This document shows positions 5,561 to 8,864 of a stretch of 9,757 bases of DNA, one piece after another (within the stretch, counting starts at the first letter, position 1; the number at the start of each line of letters is the position of its first letter). The notes under the pieces were generated by a model. It saw nothing but the letters and a program-made list of their open reading frames with translations, was not told the origin of the DNA and searched no databases. Both the position numbers and the translations under genes were made by a program. This DNA is from an archaeon (GTDB taxonomy: Archaea > Iainarchaeota > Iainarchaeia > Iainarchaeales > CSSED10-239): the NCBI GenBank assembly GCA_035390665.1, contig DAOOUC010000018.1, positions 1 to 9,757 of the forward strand, given 5' to 3'.

Positions 5561-6385
5561 TTACTTTATACTCTTTCTTACTTCTTGATAGAGCTTATTG
5601 GCTTTCGTCATTTTCTTTTTTATGTCTGCTAGAGAAGAAATCTTGTAAAGGTCTTCTAGTTGCTCTAATATTGCGCGCGAGCCCGAGCGAAACCGGCTCT
5701 TTGGGATGTTATCTTTGGAGATGCCGGAAAGATGATAACCAGATTTGGTTGGAGTGTATCTAAGCCTAATAAGCTCTACTAATGGAATTAATATGTATTT
5801 CTGATATGCAGCAAAGGATTGAAGAAAATGATTACGATTTATTTCTTTTTCTACCCAAACTTGAAAGAAACTATTGGGCGCGAGAACCATTGCGCGCGAG
5901 CTGAGCGAAACCGGCTCACCGAAACCGGCTCTATCTAAAGCTTTTATTTTTTCTTCTGTGTCTTTCTTTAACTTTTTCTTGTCTAGTTTCTTAAACTTAA
6001 TAACTTTTGTTTTATCAAAAATAATAGAAACCTTTTCATCCTCATAACCAGAAGTATACCAAAAGACACGAGAGTGTTTTTCTATACATACATCTATTAC
6101 AAGAAACTTAGAACTTCCCTTTAAATGATAAAACTTTTGCCTAATCTTTGGATGACTATGTTCTTTTTCAAAAGAATAATCAATATTTCCTATATTTTCT
6201 AATAGCTTCTCTATTTTCTTAAATGCTTTAGATACATAATTATCTTCTACATCTATCCATATATCAATATCTGAGTATTTATCTACTCTACCATGAGCAT
6301 CTGCACCTTCAAGCCAACAAGCATAGACTTTTGGGTCCTTTTCTAGTTCTTTAAGGCTAGAGATTATGGTTTTACGAGATATCAT
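5561..6385 (-). CDS. Pol-beta-superfamily nucleotidyltransferase (aminoglycoside/lincosamide-NTase-like layout)
   Basis: 274 aa. The NTase signature G[SA]-x10-DhDh is present as LEGADAHGRVDKYSDIDIWIDV, with a third acidic strand FLVIDVCIE. The N-terminal layout resembles ANT(6)-type adenylyltransferases (LEGSxxxxxxxDxxSDxDI). AGGAG lies 8 nt upstream of the ATG. The C-terminal half carries two GC-rich in-frame repeat insertions. Confidence 0.7.
   Translation of the reverse strand: MISRKTIISSLKELEKDPKVYACWLEGADAHGRVDKYSDIDIWIDVEDNYVSKAFKKIEKLLENIGNIDYSFEKEHSHPKIRQKFYHLKGSSKFLVIDVCIEKHSRVFWYTSGYEDEKVSIIFDKTKVIKFKKLDKKKLKKDTEEKIKALDRAGFGEPVSLSSRAMVLAPNSFFQVWVEKEINRNHFLQSFAAYQKYILIPLVELIRLRYTPTKSGYHLSGISKDNIPKSRFRSGSRAILEQLEDLYKISSLADIKKKMTKANKLYQEVRKSIK
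5671..5700. repeat. GC-rich repeat unit, copy 1, inside the NTase ORF
   Basis: ttgcgcgcgagcccgagcgaaaccggctct is 21/30 G+C in a gene that is otherwise about 25% GC. It shares an exact TTGCGCGCGAGC (12 nt) and an exact GAGCGAAACCGGCTC (15 nt) with copy 2, separated by a 1-nt indel. Confidence 0.65.
5876..5932. repeat. GC-rich repeat unit, copy 2, with internal partial duplications, inside the NTase ORF
   Basis: The sequence is gggcgcgagaaccattgcgcgcgagctgagcgaaaccggctcaccgaaaccggctct. It contains the full unit plus an extra CGAAACCGGCTC and an extra GCGCGAG half-unit. It lies 219 nt from copy 1 in the same orientation. Confidence 0.65.
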
Positions 6386-7838: not shown

Positions 7839-7900
7839 TTAATTCTTTTTCTTTCTTACTTCCATAAAGAGCTTATTGGCTTTCTTGATTTTTTTTATTA
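7839..7900 (-). pseudogene. Relic of the 3' end of an NTase paralogue in the SDR/methyltransferase spacer
   Basis: 7851-7892 aligns without gaps to 5573-5614 (the 3' end of the NTase gene) at 36/42 identity. Read in the homologous frame it gives ...KKIKKANKLFMEVRKKKN*, against ...KKKMTKANKLYQEVRKSIK* in the intact gene. The stop codon falls at exactly the equivalent position (7839-7841 versus 5561-5563). No upstream body of the gene remains, because the SDR stop is at 7906. Confidence 0.5.
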
Positions 7901-7905
7901 TAAAC

Positions 7906-8637
7906 TTACTTATACCCACCATCTGCTATTAAAACAATTCCATTTACATAACTGGAGTCTTGTGATGATAGGAAAAAAGCAACTGATGCTATTTCTTCTG
8001 GCTTACCAAATCTTTTTACAAATATTCTTTTTTCTTCTTCTTTTATGTATTCTTTTGGTAGTTTCTTGTTTATGTCTGTTAATACCCACCCTGGAGCAAT
8101 ACAGTTTACTCTAATCTTTGGAGCAAGTTCTTCTGCTAAGTTTCTAGTAAAACTAATTATTCCTGCTTTTGAAGCATCATAGTCTGCAGAGTCTGGACAA
8201 GTAACATTTATTCCGTTTGTTGATGCTATGTTAATTATGTTTCCAAAACCTTGCTTTAACATATAAGGTGCAGTATATTTAGAACAAAAATAAGTTCCAT
8301 TTAAATTAACATCAAAAGTTCTTTTCCATTGTTTTGTTGTTTTCTTTAATAATGGAACATCATAAACTATTCCTGCGTTATTTACTAAAATATCTATCTT
8401 TCCAAATTTTTTAATAACTTGAGTAATCATTTTCTTAACTGCGGTTTCATTTGAAACATCACATTTAATTGCAATTGCCTCTACACCTAATCTTTTTATA
8501 TCTTGAACAACTTTATTTGCTTCTAGTTTGGAATTATTATAGTTTACTACAATATTCATTCCTTCTTTTGCAAATCTTAATGCAATTGCTTTTCCAATTC
8601 CTCTACTTGATCCAGTAACTAATGCAACTTTATTCAT
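7906..8637 (-). CDS. Short-chain dehydrogenase/reductase, 3-oxoacyl-ACP-reductase (FabG)-like
   Basis: Classical SDR motifs are present: TGSSRGIGKAIA (TGxxxGxG), NNAG, a catalytic Ser in IASTNG, and YDASK (YxxxK). I place the start at ATG 8637 (MNKVALVTGSS...), because the track's GTG at 8646 lies inside the GTGAT SD, 4 nt upstream of this ATG. Confidence 0.85.
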   Translation of the reverse strand: MNKVALVTGSSRGIGKAIALRFAKEGMNIVVNYNNSKLEANKVVQDIKRLGVEAIAIKCDVSNETAVKKMITQVIKKFGKIDILVNNAGIVYDVPLLKKTTKQWKRTFDVNLNGTYFCSKYTAPYMLKQGFGNIINIASTNGINVTCPDSADYDASKAGIISFTRNLAEELAPKIRVNCIAPGWVLTDINKKLPKEYIKEEEKRIFVKRFGKPEEIASVAFFLSSQDSSYVNGIVLIADGGYK

Positions 8638-8682
8638 TTTTATCACAATTTATTTACAAATTAATAAACTTATAACCTAAAA

Positions 8683-8712
8683 CTCTTTAAAAATACTCCT
8701 TTTACTACAGAA
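8683..8712 (-). promoter_or_regulatory. Conserved 30-nt block, copy 2 (minus strand TTCTGTAGTAAAAGGAGTATTTTTAAAGAG); candidate promoter element for the SDR gene
   Basis: It is 28/30 identical to 5526-5555 and sits in the same position and orientation relative to the downstream start codon. The following spacer is also alignable: TTATAacCTaAAa here versus TTATAgtCTgAAt. Confidence 0.45.
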
Positions 8713-8805
8713 GAATTATTACTGACTTCTACGACTACTTACTTGGTTGCTTTTCTTCTTTTTCTAAGTCTTTTAGATAGAGATGATTGAATTACGAGAT
8801 ATCAT
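8713..8805 (-). pseudogene. Miniature internally deleted relic of an NTase paralogue that retains both gene ends
   Basis: On the minus strand, the 14 nt starting at 8805 are identical to the NTase start (ATGATATCTCGTAA). The relic reads MISRNSIISI*, against MISRKTIISSLK in the intact gene. The 3' part carries AAAAAGAAGAAAAGCAACCAAGTAAGTAG, which resembles the NTase end (AAAAAGAAAATGACGAAAGCCAA...AAAGTAAGTAG), and runs straight into the conserved 30-nt block. About 93 nt stand in for an 825-nt gene. Confidence 0.5.
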
Positions 8806-8864
8806 AAATGATCAAATAGAACAATTTAACTTAAAAGTGCTTTAAATATCTAACTGACAGAAAC

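Follow-up and report, generated by a model that had tools for sequence, protein, structure and literature searches.

The 9,757-nt stretch of archaeal DNA analysed here (contig C18, DAOOUC010000018.1; hereafter the window) carries on its minus strand a nucleotidyltransferase (NTase) gene that contains two GC-rich patches. With a probability of roughly 0.8, the patches are three recent insertions, made at the DNA level, of a short structured mobile repeat into an active NTase gene. Other copies of the repeat, empty sites in related alleles, an independent assembly with the same patches (L014) and a covarying hairpin support the proposal of the initial annotation that a small mobile DNA element is tolerated in frame; the nested architecture of the second patch and the main location of the element, at the ends of tRNA genes, had been missed.

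The window is one entire contig of the 21 that make up the source genome (G000), which is 848 kb long, has 28% G+C and is 86% complete. Its small-subunit rRNA scored 1352 bits with an archaeal model and 1056 bits with a bacterial model. The genomes compared are incomplete metagenome-assembled genomes (MAGs).

GC-rich patches in the NTase gene

The host gene and the copies of the repeat within it are listed below.

5561-6385, minus strand: NTase host gene, Pol-beta/NTP_transf_2 superfamily, 274 aa (open reading frame and translation)
5671-5699, plus strand: copy A (site 1), 29 nt; covariance-model match 5666-5701, 52.8 bits
5874-5884, plus strand: copy B (site 2, outer), 5' part, TTGGGCGC + GAG; colinear with the single copy of allele L013
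5885-5917, plus strand: copy C (site 2, inner), AACCA + TTGCGCGC GAGCTG AGCGAAAC CGGCTC; covariance-model match 5885-5919, 52.2 bits
5918-5931, plus strand: copy B, 3' part, loop ACCGAAAC + 3' arm CGGCTC; colinear with the single copy of L013

G+C content per 100-nt window is about 0.45-0.49 in the islands at 5671-5699 and 5874-5931 and about 0.25 around them; the first patch itself has 72% G+C in a genome of 28%. The blocks that the two patches had been said to share were located at both, TTGCGCGCGAGC at 5671-5682 and 5890-5901 and GAGCGAAACCGGCTC at 5685-5699 and 5903-5917, with an additional CGAAACCGGCTC at 5920-5931. Translation bore out that the open reading frame (ORF) is uninterrupted through both patches, which give the peptides KSRFRSGSRAI and DRAGFGEPVSLSSRAMVLAPNS, and that a coding-strand 12-mer, GAGCCGGTTTCG, is read in all three frames; it begins at plus-strand positions 5699 (phase 2, SRFR), 5917 (phase 0, EPVS) and 5931 (phase 1, RAGF). 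When up to one mismatch was allowed, the 15-mer GAGCGAAACCGGCTC occurred 10 times in the 848-kb genome and its reversed control not once, so the similarity of the patches is not due to chance. It lies at the nucleotide and not at the protein level, again as first described; sense copies in other genes read LRASPSETGS, TAREPSETGS and TARESERNRL. No further copies had been seen in the window, and a covariance-model search of it found none.

Copy A consists of TTGCGCGC (5671-5678), a 5' arm GAGCC-C-G (5679-5685), the loop AGCGAAAC (5686-5693) and a 3' arm CGGCTC (5694-5699). It is antisense to the NTase gene, which reads through it as SRFRSGSRA, and its 29-mer is identical (29/29) to copies at C2:63392, in FtsY, and at C3:31382.

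The extra block and half-unit of the second patch had been described as a tandem addition, which was not borne out. A complete copy (copy C) is nested in a copy of the other subfamily (copy B) and separates the latter into two halves, between its 5' arm and its loop; the remainder of the 5' arm of copy B (CTG) was lost on entry of copy C. Copy C belongs to the subfamily TTGC...AGCG and copy B to the subfamily TTGG...ACCG, which identifies the arrangement as a nested insertion and not a slippage duplication. The 28-mer of copy C is identical to C14:3165-3192.

Empty, half-filled and filled alleles

Four NTase alleles (the window, L012, L013 and L014) were aligned, with a mean column identity of 93%; those with empty sites were taken from metagenome contigs. 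The empty sites to be expected of recent insertions were present. Both patches are absent from L012 (P0004, sample SRR10769903). In L013 (P0003, JGI 3300009780) site 1 is empty and site 2 has a single intact copy, CTATTGGGCGCGAGCTGACCGAAACCGGCTCT, at the site of copy B, where L012 has 11 nt of ordinary coding sequence. L014 (JGI 3300033757), an independent assembly with 97% protein identity, has the double-patch structure of the window. More distant NTase orthologues match the L012 sequence at both sites, so that the empty state is ancestral. The changes between alleles are as follows.

Site 2, outer copy: 11 nt in L012 (AGAAATGATTT) to 32 nt in L013 (CTA-TTGGGCGCGAGCTGACCGAAACCGGCTC-T), net +21
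Site 2, inner copy: CTG of the 5' arm (3 nt) in L013 to 33 nt in the window and L014 (AACCA-TTGCGCGCGAGCTGAGCGAAACCGGCTC), net +30
Site 1: 18 nt in L012 and L013 to 42 nt in the window and L014 (13 non-element nt and the 29-nt unit), net +24

Taken as a series, the empty, half-filled and filled alleles show the order of the insertions. A TTGG/ACCG-type copy entered site 2; a TTGC/AGCG-type copy then inserted into this earlier copy, where its 5' arm meets the loop, and after that another TTGC/AGCG-type copy entered site 1. A target-site duplication was found in none of the three events; each lost 3-7 nt of the target, and the 5' end is ragged. At synonymous sites, filled and empty alleles have diverged by about 0.19, which makes the insertions recent relative to the divergence of the NTase alleles.

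The NTase matches to the Pfam families PF18765 and PF01909 are weak, both under the curated cut-off. A search of 60 related genomes gave no NTase match outside G000. The typical length of 73 NTase homologues is 249-255 aa, and orthologues without inserts have 249 aa. Longer homologues (259-275 aa) were considered as possible carriers of the element and rejected; their added length is terminal and not derived from the element.

Reading frame and protein

The ratio of nonsynonymous to synonymous substitution rates (dN/dS) was 0.126 between the two filled alleles and 0.10-0.14 across all comparisons, filled and empty; by this measure the gene remains under purifying selection and functional. The repeat unit has, as read from its sequence, no stop codon in any of the six frames. 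Length is therefore the sole constraint on insertion, and the net lengths of the three surviving events (24, 21 and 30 nt) are all multiples of three.

The patches are presumably translated as extra peptide between helices. An AlphaFold2 model of the NTase was of moderate quality (mean predicted local distance difference test score, pLDDT, 71; predicted template modelling score, pTM, 0.47) and has two segments of low confidence, residues 156-171 and 212-234, both flanked by helices. The former takes in most of site 2, with helix 136-152 before it and helix 173-183 after it, while the latter covers the start of site 1 (residues 230-240), the C-terminal half of which is placed in helix 235-247.

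Structure of the repeat

The repeat is 28-34 nt long and is made up of TTG[C/G]GCGC, a 6-bp stem, a conserved 8-nt loop A[G/C]CG[A/C]AAC and the 3' arm of the stem. It is oriented here as TTGCGCGC...GGCTC, with an optional AACCA or A-rich flank 5' of TTG[C/G]GCGC. Its G+C content is about 60-72%, compared with 28% for the genome, and it falls into two subfamilies, TTGC/AGCG and TTGG/ACCG.

The initial annotation had proposed that the unit be folded for a conserved hairpin, and the stem was found to co-vary between copies. Its variants stay paired (GAGCCT/AGGCTC, CAGCCT/AGGCTG, GAGCTG/CAGCTC, CAACCG/CGGTTG, GAATCG/CGATTC). Among 47 distinct copies from 17 genomes, 97% of the cells of the stem alignment are paired and double changes are seen in five of the six stem pairs; the covariation score was reached by none of 500 shuffles. 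Wobble pairs (G.U, or G.T in DNA) occur on the TTGCGCGC...GGCTC strand and are mismatches on the opposite strand, which indicates that it is the former strand that is under structural selection. Folding energies of single sequences are unexceptional for GC-rich 35-mers of such composition; support for a structure comes from the comparison of copies.

Position 4 of the 5' block and position 2 of the loop also co-vary (CG 30, GC 12, UG 1, other 1), and beside this pair lie an invariant G-C and a U.G/U-A pair. The pairing was absent from the model used for aligning the copies. A 3-bp H-type pseudoknot between the 5' UGC and the loop is thus a probable feature of the element. Co-variation of columns 11/43 and 13/16/45 was considered as a sign of base triples and set aside, since subfamily ancestry explains it equally well. 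A scan of the element and its surroundings against Rfam gave no family at the gathering threshold except tRNAs.

Copy number and lineage distribution

Copies elsewhere in the genome, which the initial annotation had anticipated, number 20-26 in G000; tRNA gene ends are their chief location, besides sites within and between genes. The covariance model gave 20 at E<=0.01; an nhmmer profile gave 22 matches at E<1 and 26 at E<10. With the covariance model the repeat was found in 16 of the 21 genomes of its own archaeal family, in four genera, while 79 other genomes of the order gave only three matches of 20-22 bits.

The exact degenerate pattern was searched in one genome each of 185,579 species and found in 11 stretches. 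Seven of these are in records titled archaeon, three are in proteobacterial MAGs and are taken to be chance matches, and one is in a contig labelled 'uncultured Clostridium sp.' This 10-kb contig (L097, CAZJYV010000058.1) has an exact copy of the element, shares its study of origin with one archaeal MAG and is probably misbinned. The searches show a repeat family restricted to a single family of DPANN archaea (Iainarchaeota) and found essentially nowhere else.

Copies at the ends of tRNA genes

The long-lived positions of the repeat are the mature ends of tRNA genes. A copy lies against a mature end in 9-10 of the 42 tRNA genes of G000. At seven of them (Asn-GTT, Leu-AAG, Leu-TAG, Gly-TCC, Ser-TGA, Ser-GGA and Gly-CCC) the copy is on the strand of the tRNA and ends 0-3 nt before the mature 5' end; at Leu-TAA and Ala-CGC it is on the opposite strand, with its 3' end abutting the 3' end of the tRNA. 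Ser-CGA has a half copy 34 nt away. The repeat is at the same isoacceptors in relatives, including those of other genera (Leu-AAG and Ser-TGA in G001, Leu-TAG in G013, Asn-GTT in G008 and, again on the opposite strand, Leu-TAA in G006), and spot checks among 150 of 786 tRNA entries agree.

The 5' strand of an acceptor stem is the reverse complement of its 3' strand, so both arrangements place the 3' end of the element beside like sequence. Such a placement is easier to explain at the DNA level than by a role in the pre-tRNA.

Three leaders (C6:7040-7104, C19:5210-5272 and C2:44850-44916) have a second small hairpin upstream of the element, followed by AAAYA. These upstream hairpins differ by compensating changes (CCGCAG-ATAA-CTGCGG, TCGCAG-ATGA-CTGCGA, TCGTGC-ATAA-GCACGA), and the tRNA-linked form is therefore a leader of about 55 nt with two hairpins, of which intragenic copies have the second only.

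Arrays and composite modules

Tandem arrays of 4-5 units were found in G001. Their 52-nt period corresponds to the element and a conserved 20-nt spacer, and one array ends at a tRNA-Ser gene.

G001:C30:22270-22620 (L047): tandem array, 52-nt period
G001:C12:18770-18996 (L048): tandem array, 52-nt period, running straight into a tRNA-Ser gene

The units of both arrays alternate between two stem variants with compensating changes. CRISPR repeats were rejected as a reading of these arrays because the spacer itself is conserved (75-86% matches across the 52-nt unit); most copies of the family are solitary.

Five independent interruptions fall between 5' arm and loop: window 5885-5917, C14:2806-2884, C6:18442-18527, C17:3740-3824 and a site in G006:C8. 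This junction is either a preferred target or a point of expansion. The copies at the C14, C6 and C17 sites are split by 46-57 nt of other hairpin-forming sequence, and in two of these three the insert carries the motif CTGG(A/G)(T/C)GCCA(A/G)(G/A)AAAT. Such split copies may be larger composite modules, or insertions at a hot spot that they have in common with the window.

A second GC-rich repeat, TTTTCGGGGGGGTAGCTGTCCAGTGCGA, has at least seven copies in the source genome (C1:17924, C1:140610, C4:11011, C7:27130, C8:13553, C10:15652 and C14:524), one of which is about 40 nt from a copy of the hairpin element (C14:589-614).

Copies inside other genes

At least six copies in G000 are intragenic and lie in four genes, which from their translations were read as those for FtsY, a PLD-like protein and a HerA-like ATPase, besides the NTase; copies that are neither in genes nor at tRNA ends are intergenic, some of them in tandem. 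Relative to the genes, copies point either way, and at least six different combinations of frame and orientation are read.

The copy in the HerA-like ATPase gene is present in G000, G007 and G006 (in the last at a contig end) and absent from G003, G002, G009, G005 and G001; across the empty site G003 reads AAATAT/CTCAAAAGAG. The FtsY copy is common to G000 and G008 and has left a decayed remnant, CCATTACCAATAGAAACCGC, in G006, while FtsY of G002 has two independent in-frame copies elsewhere in its linker. The copy in the PLD-like gene is recognisable but decayed in G008. Another copy within a copy lies inside a 393-codon ORF of G006. Comparison of these genes shows intragenic copies that decay, by mutation to A/T, into ordinary linker-coding sequence, and copies at tRNA ends that are retained.

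Mode of spread and alternative explanations

The insertions duplicate no target and lose 3-7 nt of it. The behaviour of the repeat is not that of a classical inverted-repeat element driven by a transposase. It is probably a non-autonomous element of the copy-and-paste kind. Some enzyme would recognise the folded strand and join it imprecisely at breaks beside stable helices, for which the tRNA acceptor stem and the stem of the element itself are candidates.

Searches of G000, which is 86% complete, were made for two transposase families. PF01797 (Y1 transposase) gave no match and PF07282 (TnpB) gave a single sub-threshold match of 20 bits. A reverse transcriptase was found at C13:3781-4392, in the ORF C13:3571-4602 (L082:1291-2322; 343 aa, PF00078, 83 bits), and is probably of the type encoded by diversity-generating retroelements (DGRs). 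A 110-aa ORF upstream of it resembles, by eye, the accessory protein Avd, and about 1.4 kb upstream there is a GC-rich stretch of 97 nt (C13:2111-2207); the ensemble has the appearance of a DGR. G001, G002, G006 and G008 have 9-16 copies of the element and no detected reverse transcriptase; G014, G016 and G018 have a reverse transcriptase and no copies. The enzyme was rejected as the mobiliser on account of its probable DGR type and of this distribution.

Several points weigh against insertion of a mobile repeat as proposed here. An enzyme that mobilises the repeat was not identified, nor was any excised or intermediate form seen. With the genome 86% complete, the absence of a transposase is not proven. 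Precise junctions are available for only three or four events with remodelled flanks, so that the absence of duplication and the small deletions are drawn from few cases. The complete identity of some copies could be a result of gene conversion instead of recent transposition. For the pseudoknot there is a single co-varying pair, which could trace to one ancestral split into the two subfamilies. At tRNA ends, structure and position are kept from genus to genus, which suggests a function for the host at these sites, and the element may be primarily a functional RNA or DNA module whose mobility is secondary. Tentatively, the two aspects might be combined: the unit would be an undescribed structured module of archaeal pre-tRNA flanks, made up of a hairpin and a pseudoknot beside the processing sites, that is also mobile, with a structure-specific target (the bases of helices and its own stem).

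The first alternative is spread by way of RNA. The unit would primarily be a functional part of the pre-tRNA; leader or trailer RNAs released by RNase P or other processing enzymes would occasionally be turned into DNA again, through reverse transcription or break repair templated by RNA, and give rise to the intragenic copies. The 3' end of the element lies within 0-3 nt of the mature tRNA 5' end or, on the opposite strand, of the discriminator base; the flanking copies are at the same isoacceptors across genera, and the inserted copies have ragged 5' ends with 2-5 extra nt. Transposition of archaeal tRNA introns has been proposed previously (PMC4033280). Since RNase P RNA is present in G000, the route through released leaders is retained, with a small share of the probability; a reverse transcriptase gene is present as well. 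However, the reverse transcriptase is probably of DGR type and its presence does not follow the element across genomes, and copies opposite the tRNA strand would fall outside the pre-tRNA.

It is improbable that the repeat is a classical miniature inverted-repeat transposable element (MITE), that is, a deletion derivative of an insertion sequence (IS) cut and pasted by a transposase in trans. The repeat is indeed a short, multicopy, non-coding element with presence/absence polymorphism, and archaeal MITEs are known and can fuse in frame with genes (PMC10969869). Terminal inverted repeats, however, are absent from the 19-47 aligned copies; the 5' TTGCGCGC and the 3' GGCTC are not complementary, and there is only the internal 6-bp stem. 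The target is not duplicated but shortened, the length of 28-34 nt falls under the usual MITE size range, the stems co-vary instead of keeping their sequence, and the searches for two transposase families in the 86% complete genome gave no more than the TnpB-like match noted above.

Still less likely is excision of the patches from the mRNA, as bulge-helix-bulge mini-introns, or their bypass in translation, to give a protein without them. Yeast mitochondrial GC clusters are believed to be the source of translational bypass elements (PMC4464245). Here, however, every net length is a multiple of three even though the unit itself is 28-29 nt, a filter that removal at the RNA level would not impose; the ORF is open through the patches, old copies in genes turn, in frame, into ordinary coding sequence, and copies occur in both orientations relative to genes.

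An assembly chimera or a local misassembly of repeats, for which one might cite the orthologous copy of G006 at a contig end, as is often seen with repeats, can practically be dismissed in view of L014, which was assembled independently from another sample and has both patches with one or two base differences, of the intermediate allele L013, and of the intact reading frame and purifying selection.

Comparison with known systems

The initial annotation had compared the patches with Rickettsia palindromic elements and with the GC clusters of yeast mitochondrial DNA. The analogy holds for behaviour and fails for membership, as there is no homology and size and use of frame differ. Yeast GC clusters are GC-rich palindromic sequences of 30-80 bp, in classes M1-M4, G and V, that occur as single units and tandem arrays (PMC4464245). 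They are mostly non-coding, are also found in VAR1/rps3 and rRNA genes, where they alter product size, and are polymorphic between strains; the mechanism that mobilises them is not known (PMC4464245). The archaeal unit resembles them in being GC-rich in an AT-rich genome and in its subfamilies, its tandem arrays in G001, its in-frame intragenic copies and its presence/absence polymorphism, and with 28-34 nt it is at the lower edge of their size range. Unlike them, it resides in an archaeal chromosome, is unrelated in sequence to M, G or V, has a conserved 8-nt loop and a probable pseudoknot, is tied to mature tRNA gene ends and does not show a flanking duplication. Yeast GC clusters are thus closest in behaviour, by analogy only.

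Rickettsia palindromic elements are about 100-150 bp long and are reported to encode a conserved peptide in a preferred frame. They are palindromic repeats of a reduced AT-rich genome and are found in frame in unrelated genes, at positions compatible with the fold (PMC10969869). In contrast, the archaeal unit is about 30 nt long, is read in at least six combinations of frame and orientation, and lies mostly at tRNA ends or between genes.

In location the closest systems are the tRNA introns of Thermoproteales and the split-tRNA leaders of Nanoarchaeum equitans. Mobile archaeal tRNA introns and leaders are short and GC-rich and lie on parts of the pre-tRNA that are discarded; similar copies at different tRNAs imply movement (PMC4033280, PMC4090602). 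They have bulge-helix-bulge motifs at exon boundaries and are not reported inside protein genes. The archaeal unit, by comparison, abuts intact tRNA genes and occurs within ORFs, with empty sites.

The short, imperfect GC-rich hairpin with strand-specific structure also recalls repetitive extragenic palindromes (REPs) and bacterial interspersed mosaic elements (BIMEs), with their REP-associated tyrosine transposases (RAYTs), and the ends of IS200/IS605 elements. It is as folded single strands that these hairpins are recognised; REPs lie outside genes and are headed by a conserved 5' tetranucleotide. G000 has no PF01797 match, and the archaeal unit conserves its loop instead and enters ORFs.

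The unit is therefore not a member of the MITEs, the yeast GC clusters, the Rickettsia palindromic elements or the archaeal tRNA introns and leaders. No description of such a repeat in DPANN archaea, or of an in-frame GC-rich hairpin repeat in archaea at all, was found in the open-access full-text literature.

Other features of the window and the genome

Short stretches resembling the NTase gene lie at 7850-7901, 8658-8712 and 8757-8806 in the window, around a short-chain dehydrogenase/reductase (SDR) gene (7906-8646, minus strand). With the 3' end of the NTase gene, its downstream spacer and its 5' end they share 80-85% identity, and they appear to be what is left, in scrambled form, of a second NTase copy after its disruption or replacement. 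These repeats had been considered as further copies of the element, a reading that was rejected on paralogue comparison within the window.

A tRNA-Ile with anticodon TAT lies at C2:38875-38952, in addition to a tRNA-Ile with GAT. This suggests that AUA is decoded in G000 by a UAU tRNA and not solely by a modified CAU tRNA.

Significance

In-frame GC-rich hairpin repeats are known from Rickettsia and yeast mitochondria, and their mode of spread is unsolved. New from the window are an allelic series with empty sites, a nested insertion, and intragenic in-frame copies, presumably translated, that are under purifying selection. An allelic series of this kind (empty, one copy, a copy within a copy, a second site) in one gene fixes both the order of events and their junctions. 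On a practical level, the units break assemblies and cause anomalies of GC content and codon usage in DPANN genomes that can be mistaken for foreign DNA.

The repeat family connects two topics that are as a rule studied separately, the GC-rich flanks and introns of archaeal tRNA genes, which can move, and the birth of new peptide segments in proteins, and in FtsY and the PLD-like protein old copies are seen turning into ordinary linker sequence. If the unit is a mobile module of pre-tRNA flanks, the NTase alleles would document, as it happens, the seeding and movement of archaeal tRNA leaders, trailers and perhaps introns and would show such modules becoming new protein segments. A hairpin-recognising enzyme, or a route of RNA-templated repair, would then await discovery in DPANN archaea.

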